DNA from: a virus
Length of the DNA stretch: 64,000 bases
Virus record (IMG/VR): IMGVR_UViG_3300037502_001322
Coordinates: 1-64,000 of that record
Direction: 5' to 3' (one strand)
In this document: piece after piece, positions 3,008 through 55,951 of the stretch
Numbering within the stretch: position 1 is the first letter of the stretch
Layout: the number at the start of each line of letters is the position of its first letter
The notes under the pieces: model-generated
Databases searched by the model: none
What the model saw: only the letters and a program-made list of their open reading frames with translations
Told to the model about the DNA's origin: nothing
Translations under genes and position numbers: made by a program

Positions 3008-4442
3008 AGTTATTATTATCGTTAATGATGAACAATGTCTTTTGAGAATAAGGTTTAAATTTATTCTTTAGTTCTTGATTCATATTAAAGAAACCATCAG
3101 TGAATATAACCAACTGGTCAATCTTCTTGAGTTCTTCCAGTTTAGGGACAATACAACCAAGAGATGTCCCACCGCCTCCTTTCAATTGGAACGATTTCAT
3201 CTTTGTTAGATTAGATTGGTCATAAGTGTAAACATCATAAGCTTTAGTGTCCCAACAGAACACATTAATTTCAAAACAATTATATTGTTTAGTGATACCA
3301 GCAACTTCACTTAGCACTGTGTGCAATGCTTCTTGTGTCACCGACCCTGAACTGTCAACAGCAATAACCACAGAAACAGTTTCTTGTCTTGCTTTAGCTG
3401 GCAACACAATTTGTTGATTATAGTTCAATTGCCCAGACTCTTTCAAGTGTTTTGTCAGTGCAAAAGAACGACGATGGATTCGTTTATAATCGTGGTTGTG
3501 TTTAATCAAAGAAGGAATAACTTTCTTAAGATGCTTCTTCCAATTGATTTTAGGTTTCTTCCACTCCTTCATAATATCACGGATGTGAGAAGGTGTGCTG
3601 TCACCAGCATTCTGAGAAGCCATCTGAATATCAACTTTCATTTTATCAGAGGCTTTCTGATAGTCTTCTTTAGACATCTCAAACTTCTTGCCTGCAAGAG
3701 GATCAAGTCCTAACATCTCTTCCATAGGAGATTGAATAGAAGGTTTGTCTTGTGAGGAAGAAGGCATATGATAAGAACCTTTAGAACTTGCACATTTCCC
3801 GTTGTCCTCTGAATCTTTATTATCTTGTCGTTCTTTCTTCAACAAATCATAGACTTGTTCAGAAGTCAAATCATCATATTGTTCACTGTAGAGTCCTGCT
3901 GCAATAATAGGAGATTTAGTGATAGCTGCATTATAATCACCTTTGTACCAATCTTTCACAATTTGACGGTTAATCTTATAATCCCCAGCTTCATTATAAA
4001 GTTCAGGATCTCTTGTTCCTCGTCTCAGGAAATGTTCATTAACAATATGGTCAATCTCATGCCTGAACACAAACATGATATCATTAACATTGCAACCTTT
4101 CTTTTTAGTTTCAAGAATTTCTTTCAGTTCGTCATATTGTTCTTGTGTGACTCGTTGTTCAGTCAACATATGGTTCAAACGAGAAAGACTTTCATTATAA
4201 CGAACTTCAGGCATACCAGCAACAAATTCAGGATTAAACCAAATAGAGAAACCATCTGTTCCGGCGGTAGGAACAAAAGAATAATCTAACTTTAACTTTT
4301 GGTTCATTGCAAGCTGAGCATAGAAGGGATGTTCTCTAAGCATATCAAGGCGAGCCTTGCGAATCATCTTGATAGCTTTGTCTTCAAGCGCTTTAATAGA
4401 ATCTTTTTCTTCTTGACTCATAAGTTTCATTTTAGTATTCAT
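2961..4442 (-). CDS. metallopeptidase-like + VWA domain protein (DUF2201 type)
   Basis: TAGTDG, HEIDH zinc motif, C-terminal MIDAS DSSGS...GGGT...FTDG. Confidence 0.85.
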   Translation of the reverse strand: MNTKMKLMSQEEKDSIKALEDKAIKMIRKARLDMLREHPFYAQLAMNQKLKLDYSFVPTAGTDGFSIWFNPEFVAGMPEVRYNESLSRLNHMLTEQRVTQEQYDELKEILETKKKGCNVNDIMFVFRHEIDHIVNEHFLRRGTRDPELYNEAGDYKINRQIVKDWYKGDYNAAITKSPIIAAGLYSEQYDDLTSEQVYDLLKKERQDNKDSEDNGKCASSKGSYHMPSSSQDKPSIQSPMEEMLGLDPLAGKKFEMSKEDYQKASDKMKVDIQMASQNAGDSTPSHIRDIMKEWKKPKINWKKHLKKVIPSLIKHNHDYKRIHRRSFALTKHLKESGQLNYNQQIVLPAKARQETVSVVIAVDSSGSVTQEALHTVLSEVAGITKQYNCFEINVFCWDTKAYDVYTYDQSNLTKMKSFQLKGGGGTSLGCIVPKLEELKKIDQLVIFTDGFFNMNQELKNKFKPYSQKTLFIINDNNNFDAPFGKAINYDKYQ

Positions 4443-35801: not shown

Positions 35802-36451
35802 TAAAATCCCCCTATTCTCTCAGCTTGTTGTGCTCTTGTGCGCTCAACATGAGACTGTTTCTGAGAAGCGCCATCTGATTTATTTTCAGTTCCGTCTATG
35901 TTAGCATTAGAGGATTGTGTAGAAGACCCATTAGCTGTTTGAGAAACAGGTTGAGATGTTCCTTCTAACGTAACAGATTGTGCAGTTACAAATCGAACTC
36001 TCTCTATTCCTATCCTAAACACTAATTGGTCTGCTTCTTGTGCATTAACGTTATAATCTAAAGATGTCACTACACAATCATCGAATATCTCAAATTCAGT
36101 TATAAGAGTGAAAATAACTTTTGATTCTTTTAATGTTCTTAAATAATCTACAGCTTTCTGTGTACGTTTAACATCTAAATTATATTCAACAATATTACCT
36201 TGATATGGTTGGATAGGGGTGTTAGTCACAACCCCTATAACTTCGAACTTATCGTTATTACTATAAATATGATCAGCGATATCTTGTTTTGATTCCACAG
36301 GATGCAGTGTTAAATTATTAGTCAGATTGACATTAACGTTTGTGACTGCATCAAATATCAGCGTGGAAAAATCAGCGGCTGAAGCACCGCTGACATATGG
36401 TAATTGTTTACCAAAAGATGTACCACCGGCCACTATAACATTAGTTGCCAC
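35801..36451 (-). CDS. tail tube initiator / Dit-like protein
   Basis: FDAV...TLHPVESKQDIADH motif, directly after the tape measure gene. Confidence 0.8.
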   Translation of the reverse strand: MATNVIVAGGTSFGKQLPYVSGASAADFSTLIFDAVTNVNVNLTNNLTLHPVESKQDIADHIYSNNDKFEVIGVVTNTPIQPYQGNIVEYNLDVKRTQKAVDYLRTLKESKVIFTLITEFEIFDDCVVTSLDYNVNAQEADQLVFRIGIERVRFVTAQSVTLEGTSQPVSQTANGSSTQSSNANIDGTENKSDGASQKQSHVERTRAQQAERIGGF

Positions 36452-36462
36452 TAAGCCTCCTT

Positions 36463-39400
36463 TTAATCTTCAGAAATATCATGAACTACGGTGCTTCTCC
36501 AACCTTGTAGATTAGCTTCAACTCTTGTATCAACAAACTTTTCAGCACCATTGCTCGGATTGAAGATAACTTTGATTTCCCCTTTCTCTTGGTCAGTAAC
36601 CGATTTAGTTACCTTCAGTTCTGTAGGTTGGTTGTTAGACTTATTGACAGATGTGGCTGAATCAGATACAGTTGGAGGTACAAACATGTTGTACGGATTT
36701 AACCTGTCACCTGTTTCTTTAATAAATTTATCTCTTTCTTGAGAGGATTGAATCAAGCTTGTTTTGTTAGATAAATCATTAAATAAGTTTTCAAGTTTAT
36801 GACGAAGACCTTCAAAGAATGCGCCTATTTTATCAAAGAATGGTTTTGCTTTCTCATACATAGACTTAGCCCACTCTGTTGCACCTAAAGCATGGAGAAG
36901 TTCTCCTACCATAATAAGTGTACCAACAAAAGGAATAAATCTGCCAAAAAGCAAACCTAAACTTCCTGCAACTCTACCGACTCCTCCTGCTGCACCAGAT
37001 AAAGATCTTGCTCCGAAAGCAGTGGCGAAGATGCCCCCAGCCTTACCGAAAGGTAGAAGCTTAGAACCTAACCACATTAACGAGCTTCCAAACAGCTTCA
37101 TAATTTTGAACAATGACAAGAATATAAATGCTGCTGGAGCTATTGCTGCGAGCCACATTGCAATATTAGCACCATTAGATTTCATGCTCTCTTCTGTGAT
37201 ACCTAACCAGTTAGCAAAGTCTGCCATGTAGGCGACTGCAAGTTCTATAGGTGTTACTACTAACCACAATGCTCTATGAAACACACCAGATAAGAAATTA
37301 GCAACTGGTTGTAACATGAACATTAAGTTTTCTAATGCACCGAATAGAAATTGCAACCCTGGTCCTAACCCTGCATCAAAAGATTCTCTCTTAAAATCAT
37401 TAAACGTATTGATTAATCTGTTAAGGTCAGCATTGAAGTTTTTAGTCATAGTATCAAGTTCACCAGACACTTTCTTTCTCATTAATGCTGCCAATTTAGG
37501 TAATGCTTCCAAGGGAAACATCAACCCATTTTCCATATCTTTACGGAGTTGTTTGGTGGATATTCCCATTGCCTCAGCCATTAAGGCTACGGCACCGGGC
37601 CGTTGTGTTCAGTTAAGCTCGCAAAACTTAACCCGCACCATTATGTGCAGCTACATATCTCTATGCAGACCAGATCATATCATTATCCTTAACTAAGGAT
37701 ATCTACCACTTCGAATGCCCTTAGCTTGCACCCTACGCCTTTCGGCTGATCGTTGAACGTTCATCTTATTTGTTAAAGATGATTCGCTGCTGATTGTCTT
37801 TATTGTAATGATTATTAGGGTTCGTTAAATATCACTACTTAATATCCTACATTACACTTAACAAGAGTTTCCAGCAATTCAATAGATTATTCGATACACA
37901 TTACTGTGTAAAGGGACTTTTCCAAATCCTGTCACCTAGTTGGTTATTTAATTCTTCCCAGACGTTCAGTTAAGTTCGCAACACTTAACCCGCACCATTA
38001 CGTGCTGCTTATAGTTTCCCCATAAGAGCAGACCATATCATCATCCCGTTAATCGGGGTTGCCTCCTGTTTGGAGTGCCATTAGCTTGCACCCTACTCGG
38101 TTACATTCATCACCGATGGTCGTTGAACCTTCTTTCTCATTGGTTTTATTAGATATTGATTAGATATATGTTTCCAAGATATACCGGATCTTATTTTAGT
38201 TGCTTGTTGTTTAGATATCCCAAATTCAATAACAGCTTCTTTTGGAGAACCACCTTCTTCGAAGAACTTACAAACTTTATGGACAACTTCTTCCGTCAGC
38301 TTAGATCTTCCATTAAGTTCTCCTTTCAAAGACGGAATTAATCCATCTTCCCACGCCTGTATAGTATTAGAGAATAAATCGCACCACTCTAAGTTATTTA
38401 CGTTGTTATTCAATTTATCATTATCTAAATGTTTTACTAAAACCTCACCCCAATGTTCTTTGGAACATTTCTCTACTAATTCTTGAGATGGACTATTAAG
38501 AAAAAGTTCAGCTACAAGCCTGTGAATCTTTAAAGTTTTTACATGACCATTTATAGTGACTTGTGTAATGCGATAGCCTTGTTTATTGATTCTAGTGTAT
38601 CTGACCTTTTTGTTTTTATAATTCCTAACTTCTCCGAGATTGGAGATCTCTAACATGGTGTAGATAGGATGACGTTTGTACTCAATGAGAAAACTTGGCT
38701 GCTGATTGCCCATTATTGACTCCTTAATTTAAAAAGAGTATTATACGCTAAACGTACATAATTGTCAATAATTAGGGTGTCCCAGCAATTAAAGAGGTTT
38801 TACATGGCCCAAGAATTAAGCCATGATTTGGTTTTTAGAGAACATTTGTTCGAGGGCTTTAAATATCCCATCCATTTCATCAGGAGTGTTACCAAAAGCG
38901 ACACCTGCTTCCATGAAAGAACTAAATATCTCGTTAACTTGTTCTAAAGGAGCTCCTGCTGAATTAGCAGCAAATGCAAATTTAGCAAAAGATTTAGCAG
39001 AATCAAGATAGGTCACACCTAACCTTTCTGCCTCTTTTCTTAAATACTCCATCTGGGAAGTTGCTTCATCCCCGAATACAACTCTCATCATCGATTCCAT
39101 TCTTTGGAATTGACTTCCTATAGTTGCCACACTCATAACAGCGCTAAACGCCGTAAATGAGGCTGTGCCTGCAACCATAGCACTTCTAAGACCTTTATAC
39201 TGGTCAGACAATCCTTTGACTGAAGCCGAATGCCTTCTCATATCAGAATTAAGGATGTTCAACCTTATTCTATAAGTAGAAGCTGTAATTGAACCAATTT
39301 TTAATTCATTATTGAGGTCATTCAATCTATCCCAATACTGTTTTATCTCAGCAGGTCTAAAAGATCCTCCTCTTAATCTTAAAGTATCTTTGAATCTTTC

Positions 39401-39916
39401 AGCACCAACTCCAGCTAACTCACCTCGCCTTAGTTGTTCTCTTGCCCGCATTCTTCGTTGTTTGTTTAACTCTTTTCTTAAGTTAATCGCATTTCGAACT
39501 TTCTGTTTATGCTCAGCAGCTTCTTGTTTAACCCTCGCGTCATGAGCTTTTCTATCAGCATCTATTTTTCTTTTATCTGCTTGGTCAAAAAGCTTTTGAA
39601 AATCAGATTGTCTTTTTAACTCAGACTTCCACCAATATTCATAGTTCTTGTCTAAAACTCTCTTCTGTGCAGTGTGGTCTAAATTAACACCGCCTTTCTT
39701 GGCCATTTTAGCTCTTTCACGGGACTCTTTCTTTATTCCATCCACAACCTTTCTTTGTTGTTGGACTTGTGTTTTTGCTACTCTGATTGGATTAGAGACT
39801 TTATCCATCATCTTCTTTAATCTATAGATCTCTTGTTTTGCTTTCTTAAAACTTGACCTATCAATCTGAGCAACAACTTTATTAATTAGCTTGCTGGCTA
39901 TTAATGTCTTTGCCAT
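36463..39916 (-). CDS. tape measure protein, spliced: exons 38819..39916, 37926..37957, 36463..37600 (755 aa)
   Basis: joining restores the tape-measure motif KALEQMFSKNQIMA|EELNNQLGDR|MPGAVALMAEAMG. Confidence 0.9.
37601..37925 (-). mobile_element. group I intron TMP-2 (325 nt, ORF-less)
   Basis: GGAU/GUCC P1 with U.G, AAUCAGCAG, P7 GAUCA/UGAUC, terminal G. Confidence 0.9.
37958..38818 (-). mobile_element. group I intron TMP-1 (861 nt) carrying an HNH endonuclease
   Basis: CAUGGCU/GGCCAUG P1, AAUCAGCAG, P7 GACCA/UGGUC, terminal G. Confidence 0.92.
38093..38713 (-). CDS. intron-encoded HNH homing endonuclease (NUMOD4-like/HNH/HTH)
   Basis: EISNLGEVR, KIHRLVAELF, HLDNDKLNNNVNNLEW; AGGAG SD. 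Confidence 0.9.
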   Translation of the reverse strand: MGNQQPSFLIEYKRHPIYTMLEISNLGEVRNYKNKKVRYTRINKQGYRITQVTINGHVKTLKIHRLVAELFLNSPSQELVEKCSKEHWGEVLVKHLDNDKLNNNVNNLEWCDLFSNTIQAWEDGLIPSLKGELNGRSKLTEEVVHKVCKFFEEGGSPKEAVIEFGISKQQATKIRSGISWKHISNQYLIKPMRKKVQRPSVMNVTE

Positions 39917-40105
39917 TTAGCTAACCTCCATTGTTTTTATAAGTAAATGATAACAATAATGATTATTGTTTATGACTTGCTATAGTTTATAACAAAACCC
40001 TTTTAATATCAATTCCATAACATTCTTAGGATATTTCGTAAACTATAGATAAAAGAAAAGCCCCACCTTAAAGATGGAGCGTTATATGGGGTCACGTTTT
40101 ATATT

Positions 40106-40324
40106 TTAAACGAAAGGCAGTTTTCCTTTCTGATTCTTATTGTTCTCTGCTTGTTTGCTCTGCTTTTCTGATTCTTTATGTTGGACTTCCTGAATATAAT
40201 CTTGAATATCCAGAAACTCATTCAACTTAAACAAGTACTCCATATCGTACATATTAAGACTATACCTTGTCTCTGATACTCGTTTATCTGTTATTACACG
40301 CAACAATAGAGAATCTAACCACAT
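40106..40324 (-). CDS. tail assembly chaperone, -1 frameshift extension (gpT-like)
   Basis: frame open back to slippery T TTT TTC at 40441-40447. Confidence 0.75.
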   Translation of the reverse strand: MWLDSLLLRVITDKRVSETRYSLNMYDMEYLFKLNEFLDIQDYIQEVQHKESEKQSKQAENNKNQKGKLPFV

Positions 40325-40362
40325 TAATGAGTTATGTGTGTTAACGTAAGTTAGTGCGTTCT

Positions 40363-40932
40363 TTAACCCTCGGGAAAGAGTTGTTTCAAGTGTCCCATTG
40401 GAAGTGCTGTTTTGAGAAGGCCGAACAAACCTTTTCTCTTGAAAAAAGGGCCGTAGTTCACCTCCAGAACTTTAACCGCAAGGTCGATCATTAGGTAAGG
40501 CTCACGACCGAACACTTCATTGATTCTATCACCAACAGCAACAGCAGTATTACCCTGAGCATAGGTAGTGGAGAACAGAATAGAGAAGAACCGATTAATA
40601 TCTTCTTCCTGCATAGTCTCAAACAATGTTATGATTGCCATCGGAAGAGATTCTGACAGATTGACAGAAGATGCTGCTTTCTCCAGTTGGTCAATAGAGG
40701 CACCCTTCAATTCACTAACAGCAGAGCCAAGAAGAATAGAAATAGGGGTAATAATAAATTTACCAATGATGGGCATATTGGACCAAAAACGATCTGGACC
40801 CCAGTGGTTAATAGTAAACATTTTCTTTCCGTCTTCAAACTCAATATCAATATTGGTTTGTTTCATAGAAAGAATGCCTTGAGGCGGGGATTGCATTTGA
40901 TTATAATTCTGATTGGAACCTAAAAGACTCAT
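40363..40932 (-). CDS. tail assembly chaperone (gpG-like)
   Basis: between tube and tape measure; VLEVNYGPFF. Confidence 0.8.
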   Translation of the reverse strand: MSLLGSNQNYNQMQSPPQGILSMKQTNIDIEFEDGKKMFTINHWGPDRFWSNMPIIGKFIITPISILLGSAVSELKGASIDQLEKAASSVNLSESLPMAIITLFETMQEEDINRFFSILFSTTYAQGNTAVAVGDRINEVFGREPYLMIDLAVKVLEVNYGPFFKRKGLFGLLKTALPMGHLKQLFPEG

Positions 40933-48400: not shown

Positions 48401-49700
48401 TTACACGAGCACTGCGGTACTGTGTACGATAACCTCCGGCTTCACAGGAACAGCAAGAACGGAAGTTTCGCTCTCCAGTCGGTAAGAACGGTTAAAACTA
48501 TCTTCCTTATAAAGGAGAGTCAATTCTTGACCGGGCTGGTTAGCCATAGCAGCGTCATCTGCTGGAGCAAAGTACAGACGGAACATATCATCGTTAGAGG
48601 AAACCCAAGGCATAACTACGGCCTTATCAGCATCCAAATAATCGTTGATAACTTCAATTATAAACAGACCTTTGTGGCTGAAAGTACGGTTGATAGCGTT
48701 ACCACCCAGTCGCTTACGCAGAGGGTCTTGTTCACTGGAGTAATACTGGTATGCGGCCTGCACGATAGGATGCTGAATGAGCTTACTAAAGTAAGATTTA
48801 CCAGCAAACATAACCAGTTGGTACTCAGTCATCATATCCTGAGCATTTACAGCAATGTGCTGACGAGCTTCTTCCAAAGTCTCAAAGGGGTCAGTGGTTG
48901 CATCAGTCAGATCAACACCAACCTGCTTCTTAGTAACACCAAAAGCGGTGTAGTAATCGTATGCAGGTGTCACACCCTCACCTTCATAGGAAGTACCGTT
49001 GAAGATACAAGCAGACAGTACGCGCTCTTTCAGTTGAGCGTGCATACGGGTAATACGTTGCATGATGCGGATAACTTCATCTTGCAGGGTTTTGGACTCA
49101 TCACCAGAACCATACTTGCGAAAGTTCTGAATGTCTTCAGGTCGAATGTTACGCCTTTTATTCGAGTAAAGTCGCTACACTTTACCCCGTTCTCTTATGA
49201 ACTGCTTATAGTTTCCTATAAGAGTAGACTATATCACGGTCTTCGATTAAAATCGTTAAGACCCCTACCACTTCGAACACCAATCGCTTGTGTTCTACTC
49301 CCACTCACGGGATAGTCGTTGAACCTTCTTCTCTGTGAGAAGCTTGGCTGCTGATTGCCCTCGTCTTGACCGATACGTTAGGGGTTTCCAGCAATTCAAT
49401 AGGTTTTCACTTAATCATTTCTGATAAAGGGGACTGCATTCAATCCAGAGGGAAAAACGGAACGTTGAAGTTCACAGTTTGCGCGGTTTCAGAAGAAACG
49501 AAATTGCGCTCGCCGCCCCTACTACGTGCAGCAAACAAACCGTTAACTTCTTGAACACGTTCTACTTGGGCGACAGTAGTAGAAATATTATGAACACTGA
49601 ACATATCCATACCGGTCAGCAGGGACCAAGTACGTGGCAGTAAATTGATCTCCGAACTATAATCCAAGAGCAGGAAATCGGATGCGCGGGTAGTTGCCAT
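48401..49700 (-). CDS. major capsid protein, spliced: exons 49443..49700 and 48401..49153 (336 aa)
   Basis: junction FNVPFFPLD|RNIRPEDIQNFRKY; major capsid E-like sequence; strong codon bias. Confidence 0.92.
49154..49442 (-). mobile_element. group I intron MCP (289 nt, ORF-less)
   Basis: GGAU/GUCC P1, AAUCAGCAG, GUUCAACGACUA, GAUAUAGUCU, terminal G. Confidence 0.92.
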
Positions 49701-53961: not shown

Positions 53962-55951
53962 AATAGCTAAGGCAGTGTGAACTTTAGATGCTGCAAGGAA
54001 GTTGAATGCTGAAGCCACAGCATCGGCCCAGTCATCGTGACGATGTGTTGAAGATCTTTCACCATCGAATGCTTCCAATTCTTTCATTAAGGCTTCATAG
54101 GTTTTAGGAGAAAATGTAGATTTAACTATTCTAACAAAACCTTGTTCTGCTGCACTTGCGAACGGTTCAAATCTCTTAAGTTTGGATTTGTTACCGGGGG
54201 TTGGGTCTTTCTTTACTGTATAACCTGTCTCTATTAAAGGTTTAGCAGAATTCTGAAACTCAGATAATCCAGAAGCACCGGGATCTACAGGAAACACTAC
54301 AACAGTGTCTGAACCATCATATTCAGCTTGCTTCCTAATAGTGACATCCCTTTCCCCTACTGATTTGCAGAATCTACCTCCTGTTTCAGTAACATCGTCA
54401 TAATTGTCTGGGTGATGGTCGCCTGTAATATAATAGAAACCATCCCGGCATTTATACATCTTACAAGAAGCTGTGAAGTCTGGGTTTTTATAAGAGACTG
54501 TTCGTTCTTTGCCAGCTTTATCCCATGCCCTTACTGATTTACAATGAAGAGGAACTTTATCTACTTCTTTAAGAAATTCTCGTTTGAAATATTTAGCACC
54601 TTTAGGTCTTGCATCCCAATTACCAAAAAGCAACTGAGCTTTATCTACTGGGTTAAGACCTTCAAGAAATGCAAGATAATCAGGATTGCTTTCAAGCATT
54701 GGAGGATTATCATATATAAGAGCAGAAATAAACTGAAAGGATATAGGTCGGACATTATCACCGAATTTCTCTTTCAATTCTTCCGAAGAGTTACCCCAGA
54801 AAAACTCGCCATCTCTTGTTATAAACCATCTAACCTTTCCATCACGTTCTGGGTCAGGGAACCCTTCATCATCCAGATACCAATCAATCAGTTCTCGTAT
54901 TTTATGATCTGGATCCGGGTTACAAGTTATAACCATGCGTGAAGGGTATTTAGAGTTGGACCTCAAGCGAGACATCATATATTCTACATTGTGTTCATGA
55001 GTGGGCGCTACACCACTCACCGGGATAGACCCAGCTACATGTTTCCATATAGATCAGACTATATCATCACCTTCAGCACTATCTGTTCAGGTGTCGTGCG
55101 CTTCGAGTGTCAATCGCTTACACTCTACTCCCTTTCGGGATAGTCGTTGAACGTTCTTCTTAAATTAAGAAGCTTCGCTGCTGATTGCCTTCGTTTATCA
55201 ACGTTAAGGTTTTCCAGCAATTCACACGATTTTCAATAACACATTTCTGTATTATGCAGCTAGTTTTAACTGAGACCACTCAAACTGAGTACCTTCATCT
55301 ACACCTATCAATGAAAACTGGGCACCTTGTATGTTATACTTATCAGACTCCCTCTCCATATGACTAAACTTTTGTTTAGCCCCAGATGGCCATATAAACT
55401 CAAGAGCTTTTTCTCTAGCTCTTGGTCTTTGGTTTAGAGGTAACTGCATATAAATACTTTTAGCTGTATCCCATATCCCTCCTCCAGATGTAATTTGAGG
55501 TGTTGTCCTGCGAAACATTATAATGTTAGTGTTAGGGTCATCTACTATAAAAAGAGGTAAAAGTTGTAGCAAGTAGGATTTACCTGACAGATGTTCAGAT
55601 TGAGTCGTTAATTCAACCCCGCACCTTTATGTGCTGCTATGCATTTCTGCACAGTTCAGACTATATCATCAACCTAAACTGAGGTTGCCTCCCGTTTCGA
55701 ATTCACTTGAACCCTACACCTTACGGTTAGTCGTTGAACCTTCTTCTCATAGAGAAGCTTGGCTGCTGATCGGCTTAGCTTAAGTTATTAAACCTTAGCG
55801 TTCCAGCAATTAAAGAGGTTATTCAATCAGTGTCACCACTGAAGGCGGCCCGTTAACCGGCGGCACCACCTGCTACAAGTATTTGTGCTGTAGAATTAAG
55901 AATCATTTCCTGCTTCTTGGAAGCAGGGGCAAATAAAGGTTGATTACTCAT
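53923..55951 (-). CDS. terL: terminase large subunit, spliced: exons 55856..55951, 55269..55587, 53923..54986 (492 aa)
   Basis: joining restores Walker A GGAAG|SGKS and DEGTQFEWSQ|LEYMMSRLRS; TCNP; nuclease RAWD...HDDWADA. Confidence 0.93.
54987..55268 (-). mobile_element. group I intron terL-2 (282 nt, ORF-less)
   Basis: CAGU/GCUG P1, AAUCAGCAG, GUUCAACGACUA, GAUAUAGUCU, terminal G. Confidence 0.92.
55588..55855 (-). mobile_element. group I intron terL-1 (268 nt, ORF-less) inside Walker A
   Basis: CGGU/GCCG P1, GAUCAGCAG, GUUCAACGACUA, GAUAUAGUCU, terminal G. Confidence 0.92.

Follow-up and report, generated by a model that had tools for sequence, protein, structure and literature searches.

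A 32-nucleotide exon predicted between two group I introns in a phage tape measure gene

Can a coding piece of 32 nucleotides (nt) between two self-splicing introns be recognized as a genuine exon, and if so, does it serve to regulate the gene to which it belongs? The tape measure gene of the virus in IMG/VR record IMGVR_UViG_3300037502_001322 raises both questions. The window analyzed here is a stretch of 64,000 nt (positions 1 to 64,000 of that record, which is 103,675 nt long and estimated to be 74% complete). A first-pass annotation of the window had proposed a 32-nt micro-exon between two introns of this gene, and had suggested that splicing order and exon skipping could control the amount of full-length tape measure protein. 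The micro-exon itself is borne out by evidence from reading frame, protein profiles, homologues and RNA structure. The suggested control found no computed support, and part of the evidence, that on the helices P10 and P3/P7, is contrary to it. We consider it very probable that two related, independent mobile group I introns lie 32 bp apart within a motif of the TMP_3 domain and that the micro-exon is the piece of the gene left between them.

The gene lies on the minus strand of the window, as do the other window features given with coordinates below, and is arranged as exon 1, intron 1, the 32-nt exon, intron 2 and exon 3. Exon 1 (39916-38819; translation P0001) comprises 366 codons and ends in ...QIMA (AAC CAA ATC ATG GCT, the final codon being GCT). 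A TAA follows directly (38818-38816); it forms bases 1-3 of intron 1 and closes an open reading frame (ORF; 39916..38816) of 366 amino acids (aa). Intron 1 (38818-37958) is 861 nt long, opens with this in-frame TAA, is without P2, carries a putative homing endonuclease gene (HEG) in P6 and has G as its last base. The micro-exon (37957-37926), which as the reverse complement of the window is GAAGAATTAAATAACCAACTAGGTGACAGGAT, reads from GAA GAA to AGG AT and encodes EELNNQLGDR followed by 2 nt of a Met codon. It is open in one frame only, the coding one. Intron 2 (37925-37601) is 325 nt long, contains no ORF and has its final G at 37601. Exon 3 (37600-36463; translation P0002) supplies the G that completes the ATG codon, followed by 378 codons and a stop; its open frame begins at G37600 and extends to 36463.

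When exon 1, the 32 nt and exon 3 were joined by script, the resulting 2268 nt formed an open frame of 755 codons, whose product reads ...KNQIMA EELNNQLGDR M PGAVALMAEAMG... The first-pass annotation had further stated that skipping the micro-exon shifts the frame and that an unspliced intron 1 leads to a 366-aa product ending at a TAA exactly at the splice site. The joining by script confirmed the shift (a stop follows 9 codons after the 32 nt are dropped), and the 366-aa product with its stop at that position was confirmed as well. When intron 2 is kept, a stop is reached after 9 intron codons.

Evidence that the micro-exon is coding comes from the protein that it completes. Genes for a tail sheath, a tube-like virion protein and a tail assembly chaperone lie upstream, and the gene is the tape measure of a contractile-tailed phage (myovirus). 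Exon 1 matches Pfam TMP_3 (PF20155) at profile positions 2-106 (43.9 bits, cut-off 41), and in exon 3 the profile resumes at positions 119-189. In the tape-measure profile phrog_2335, exon 1 covers 448-594 and exon 3 covers 607-849, and phrog_18891 (252-371, then 383-452) has the same hole as TMP_3. The 11 residues of the micro-exon (EELNNQLGDR and M) close this gap of 11-12 positions in the Pfam TMP_3 and PHROG profiles, and a 63-aa peptide over both junctions matches TMP_3 positions 88-143 unbroken (43.7 bits, E 3.4e-11).

Uninterrupted homologues lead to the same place. A single BLASTP alignment runs through the junction in 119 homologues, counted when 8 or more residues were aligned on each side of the micro-exon, and a gap occurs nearby in 1 of the 119. 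The spliced protein AEELNNQLGDRMPGA aligned with AEELRGQLGDRLPGA in P0003 is one example of a gapless passage through the junctions. Over these homologues the micro-exon columns are, in order, E (99%), E (100%), L (89%), R (73%), G (65%), Q (100%), L (81%), G (85%), E (77%; D in 21%), R (73%) and L (69%; M in 8%). Judged by this conservation, the micro-exon encodes the best-conserved motif of the TMP_3 domain (AEEL..QLG.R.PGA). Because the 32 nt encode this motif, chance is excluded, and we regard the coding piece as real on the strength of its sequence. One big intron reaching from 38818 to 37601 was ruled out, since it would shift the frame and lose 11 invariant or near-invariant residues.

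The junctions are predicted at ATGGCT/GAAGAA and AGGAT/GCCCGG (slashes mark splice or insertion sites here and below). At the start of intron 1, CAUGGCU (38825-38819) pairs with GGGCCAUG (38810-38803) in a P1 of 7 bp (-10.6 kcal), and the 5' splice site follows a U.G pair formed by the terminal U of the exon. The P10 strand consists of the first 8 bases of the intron, UAAUUCUU (38811-38818), which form 8 contiguous Watson-Crick pairs with positions +2..+9 of the micro-exon, AAGAAUUA (37956-37949; -6.5 kcal). Tried against exon 3, the same strand is unpaired (+1.1 kcal). The 8-bp P10 independently fixes the 3' splice site of intron 1, after ..CUGG at 37958. For intron 2, P1 was taken from the alignment to the Rfam covariance model, which puts the conserved U.G at GGAU/UU: 37929-37926 pairs with 37917-37914 (GUCC), and the U.G pair consists of U(37926) and G(37917). 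The intron ends in ..ACAACG, in register with the paralogous introns. Both junctions of intron 2 can be moved together by 1 nt with the frame intact, which gives a 33-nt exon with Ile replacing Met; this alternative was dismissed solely by the U.G rule (GGAU/ in the Rfam alignment).

The RNA structure of both introns was compared with that of their relatives. Intron 2 matches Rfam RF00028 over the full model (1-253) with 68.1 bits (threshold 50, E 3.7e-15). Intron 1, with its P6 loop removed (replaced by script), aligns end to end with intron 2, with three other introns of the window and with two introns of phage ICP1. In RNAalifold, this seven-intron alignment, which includes the four Rfam-positive introns of the window, yielded 53 consensus pairs; 36 of these show double changes that compensate each other, and 95.9% of the cells are canonical. 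Identity between introns 1 and 2 is 63% over their length and 72% within the 3' half, including P9-P9.2. Their P3 and P7 helices differ through compensatory changes. The cognate pairing energies in introns 1 and 2 are -6.5 and -4.5 kcal for P3 and -6.8 and -4.8 kcal for P7, whereas the 5' strands of intron 1 pair with the 3' strands of intron 2 at only -1.6 (P3) and -0.1 kcal (P7). These comparisons show at the sequence level that both introns have the complete structure of group I introns. As the main pathway, a hybrid ribozyme combining the 5' half of intron 1 with the 3' half of intron 2 was considered and dismissed, as P3 and P7 do not cross-pair.

In the arrangement that we favor, each intron would recognize its own splice sites. 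Intron 1 would hold the end of exon 1 through its 7-bp P1 and the start of the micro-exon through its 8-bp P10, and the P1 of intron 2 would hold GGAU, the four bases that close the micro-exon. Since one intron contacts the beginning of the micro-exon and the other its end, and P3 and P7 show no cross-pairing, the two introns should splice independently and in either order, with no obligatory sequence of events. Splicing would yield the 755-aa tape measure protein. Ribosomes would be halted ahead of the ribozyme cores, in intron 1 by the opening TAA and in intron 2 by the stop reached after 9 codons. Intron 1 presumably owes its mobility to the HNH endonuclease that it encodes; intron 2, which has no ORF and lies 32 bp off, may be co-converted when this endonuclease drives homing. 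From skipped or unspliced RNA, a shortened protein of 366-375 aa would result, which is most likely tolerated as a by-product because few copies of the tape measure are needed per tail.

Phages related to this one carry introns in the same motif. Of the first 40 nt of intron 1, ~37 are shared with tape-measure intron 1 of ICP1 (L006, MW794166.1). At its 5' splice site the ICP1 sequence reads ..CAAGTCATGGCT/TAATTTCTTGGGTCATGTAAAATCTCTTTAATTGCTGG.., an insertion site (A) identical to that of intron 1. RNA-seq and reverse transcription PCR (RT-PCR) established four exons and three introns for the tape measure mRNA of ICP1, and the tape measure is described as a frequently interrupted gene (Barth et al. 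2023, PMC10448857). From the ICP1 sequence we derived introns of 330, 1112 and 328 nt (L006 1680-3473), together with internal exons, not stated in that paper, of 8 nt (GAAGAACU, 2010-2017) and 16 nt (AAAAGGUCAACUGGGU, 3130-3145). The derived spliced frame is open over 677 codons (..NQVMAEELKGQLGEVMPNA..); the annotation of GenBank record MW794166.1 consists of two fragments and an endonuclease only. In Pseudoalteromonas phage PH357 (L007), site A holds the only intron, and the sequence downstream of it, GAAGAACTTAAGAATCAATTGGGCGATTCTTTGCCCGGTGCA, which includes the position A+32 (site B), is uninterrupted. Vibrio phage 166E36-1 (L005) has one HNH-bearing intron at A+8 nt, the position of a homologous HNH intron in ICP1. 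The 33-nt stretch encoding EEL..QLG.R(L/M) has at least four insertion sites, A, A+8, A+24 and A+32, in varying combinations.

The likeness to ICP1 goes further. Its tape measure (gp81/gp79) belongs to the TMP_3 family as well (tblastn match) and has several group I introns in the same motif, one with an HNH-3 type endonuclease, and its intron 1 is also inserted at ..ATGGCT/TAA.. and is without P2. Tiny internal exons, the 8 and 16 nt derived here, are another shared feature. However, the three introns of ICP1 occupy A, A+8 and A+24, as against A and A+32 for the two of the window, where A+8 and A+24 are vacant; in ICP1, no intron occupies A+32. The window has its endonuclease gene in the first intron, as does isolate ICP1 M4 (PMC10448857), whereas ICP1 has it in the middle one, and the introns of ICP1 and the window share only about 67% identity overall. 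The arrangement is of a kind already demonstrated by RT-PCR in ICP1, and the new detail is the A+32 site, coupled with an HEG-bearing intron at A.

Closer relatives were sought in several databases. Megablast of the locus against GenBank phages gave no match, peptide-pattern scans of IMG/VR and the JGI metagenomes (based on P0002 and the protein alignment) found nothing, and an exact search of IMG/VR for the shared 3' intron block found none. A search alignment of 20 distant fragments was discarded because they were too divergent. The closest protein relatives, P0014 (96% identity) and P0015 (42%), both begin near the boundary of exon 3, and their sources are mostly Logan assemblies. In P0014, which is from a Logan contig, 7 of the first 12 residues (MEMETKDFLKAM) differ from those of the window (MGISTKQLRKDM, 37500-37570), and the other ~355 are nearly unchanged. 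The stretch that diverges is similar to another lineage (P0037). Lying just downstream of site B, it is a weak hint of a recombination or co-conversion boundary.

Several observations weigh against two independent introns flanking a micro-exon. Splicing in this phage is inferred from sequence. The P1 of intron 2 has only 4+2 bp, and its P10 is unconvincing. An intron at A+32 (site B) is found in the window only, and not in ICP1, PH357 or 166E36-1. Intron 1 is under the Rfam RF00028 threshold, and its halves score 15.5 and 14.7 bits. The low score of intron 1 is explained by an ORF of ~550 nt that fills the P6 loop, an insertion that the model disallows.

A different role for the same structures would be programmed control, in which the ratio of splicing, skipping and retention is tuned by splicing order or by competition between the ribozymes, and either sets the amount of tape measure or makes a useful N-terminal fragment of 366-375 aa. 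We regard this as improbable. The introns are 72% identical in their 3' halves, and skipping between similar neighboring introns is reported for Twort orf142 (review PMC3073962) and for a SIOphi gene, in which >47% of transcripts skipped an exon (PMC11878797). However, the 8-bp P10 of intron 1 is formed with the micro-exon, exon 3 offering no such pairing, and P3/P7 cross-pairing (-1.6/-0.1 kcal) is far from the cognate values (-6.5/-6.8 kcal). The strong P10 with the micro-exon, the lack of one with exon 3 and the orthogonal P3/P7 together indicate that correct splicing is favored. The frame shift on skipping and the stop exactly at the splice site of intron 1 would also suit a control device, but many phage and prophage introns have stops at their start (PMC2504315). 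In addition, related phages carry one, two or three introns at varying sites in the same 33-nt stretch, and such variable occupancy is the pattern of selfish insertion and not of a conserved regulatory device. By analogy with the phages in which skipping was reported, some exon-skipped by-product is possible. We give little credence to the fuller proposal that the phage uses incomplete or alternative splicing to throttle the low-copy tape measure against the sheath and tube genes of the same late transcript, or to make an N-terminal fragment of 366-375 aa with its own part in tail assembly, with the A+32 intron hitch-hiking on the endonuclease.

Even less probable is a gene permanently split or decaying, with one or both introns non-splicing and the fragments serving as separate proteins or left as pseudogenes: the failure of intron 1 as a whole at the Rfam threshold, the overlap of the HEG with core helices and the many ~300-aa database tape-measure fragments that start at this motif speak for it, but the core helices of both introns are intact (95.9% canonical, 36 compensatory pairs over seven introns), the exons have preserved an exact common frame and the invariant residues of the motif, exon 3 is without its own ribosome-binding context at the junction, and the tape measure is essential for a contractile tail.

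The preferred arrangement, two independent introns with a gene piece between them, can be compared with other known systems. In Bacillus cereus-group prophages, the group I introns TMP-IVS1/2/3 occur in tape measure genes (Tourasse and Kolsto 2008, PMC2504315). As in the window, several related IA-type introns lie within one tape measure gene, P1 and P10 of homologous introns are re-tuned for different sites, stops occur at or near the intron start, and most copies are without an ORF. These introns differ in belonging to Gram-positive prophages and to another, much larger tape measure family, and the available sections of that paper describe no micro-exon. Staphylococcus phage Twort orf142 and genes of the Bacillus phages SIOphi and phiNIT1 (Bastillevirinae) resemble the window in having two or three neighboring group I introns with small internal exons. 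However, the genes are others (tail tube, terminase/polymerase, ribonucleotide reductase), and skipping by similar introns was measured there (PMC3073962, PMC11878797). Very short exons between self-splicing introns, missed by annotation, are also known from organelles, as in the cox1 genes of placozoans and fungi (PMC5436844 and PMC12308204). These are eukaryote mitochondrial genes, in which many of the introns are protein-dependent.

The main value of the present result is for annotation. Gene callers give two tape-measure fragments and an endonuclease at this locus, whereas the gene is predicted to yield one protein of 755 aa, and the piece encoding its most conserved motif is below the size that gene callers recognize. 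PHROG families 9766 (342 positions) and 35923 (347 positions), both matched by P0001, end exactly at the end of exon 1, and dozens of ~300-aa database proteins begin inside the EEL..QLG.R.PGA motif. This suggests that split tape measure genes are widely mis-annotated as separate proteins, although protein data of this kind do not imply introns in those cases. With its new insertion site, 32 nt away from one in wide use, the locus also contributes a data point to the view that the TMP_3 motif AEEL..QLG.R.PGA is a hot spot at which group I introns and HNH endonucleases insert in phages infecting aquatic Gammaproteobacteria.

The endonuclease gene of intron 1 (38713-38093) encodes a putative HNH/NUMOD4 homing endonuclease of 206 aa within P6. 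The protein matches phrog_59 (HNH endonuclease) at E 8e-30, and its Pfam scores for HNH_3 (20.5, cut-off 24.8) and NUMOD4 (19, cut-off 23.4) are both below the cut-offs. Over 124 aa it shares 33% identity (E 7e-13) with the HNH gene carried by the tape-measure intron of Vibrio phage 166E36-1. An AAGGAG ribosome-binding site stands 7 nt ahead of the ATG of the endonuclease gene. The ORF overlaps strands of the ribozyme core, P5'/P4'/P6 at its start and P6'/P7/P7.1 at its end, and its stop falls in the conserved GAGUAGGGUG block. Because of this overlap, translation of the endonuclease and folding of intron 1 should be mutually exclusive.

Signals for transcription were also noted. A sigma-70 consensus promoter (TTGACA-17-TATAAT, 12/12; 38740-38768) lies inside intron 1 in the L5 region, ~27 nt upstream of the endonuclease ATG, and is the only 12/12 site within 36300-40400. 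Transcripts from this promoter would omit the 5' half of intron 1 and keep the micro-exon, intron 2 and exon 3. A terminator-like hairpin with a T-run (40060-40080) and a weak promoter-like site (39984-40012) lie in the interval that separates the tail chaperone genes from the tape measure start codon; tape measure transcription may for this reason be below the level of the upstream tail genes.

The three other introns of the window (49154-49442, 54987-55268 and 55588-55855) belong to the same family, are ORF-less and lie in putative capsid and large terminase genes. They are 59-66% identical to the tape measure introns and align well with them, which points to one intron family at five sites in late genes. 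In a blastn search against GenBank phages, the core of intron 2 matched 334 phage records, in intergenic or split-gene regions where it is mostly unannotated. The matches include terminase genes of rV5-like coliphages as well as Pseudoalteromonas, Vibrio, Bacillus phiNIT1-like, phiKZ-like Pseudomonas and Campylobacter phages.

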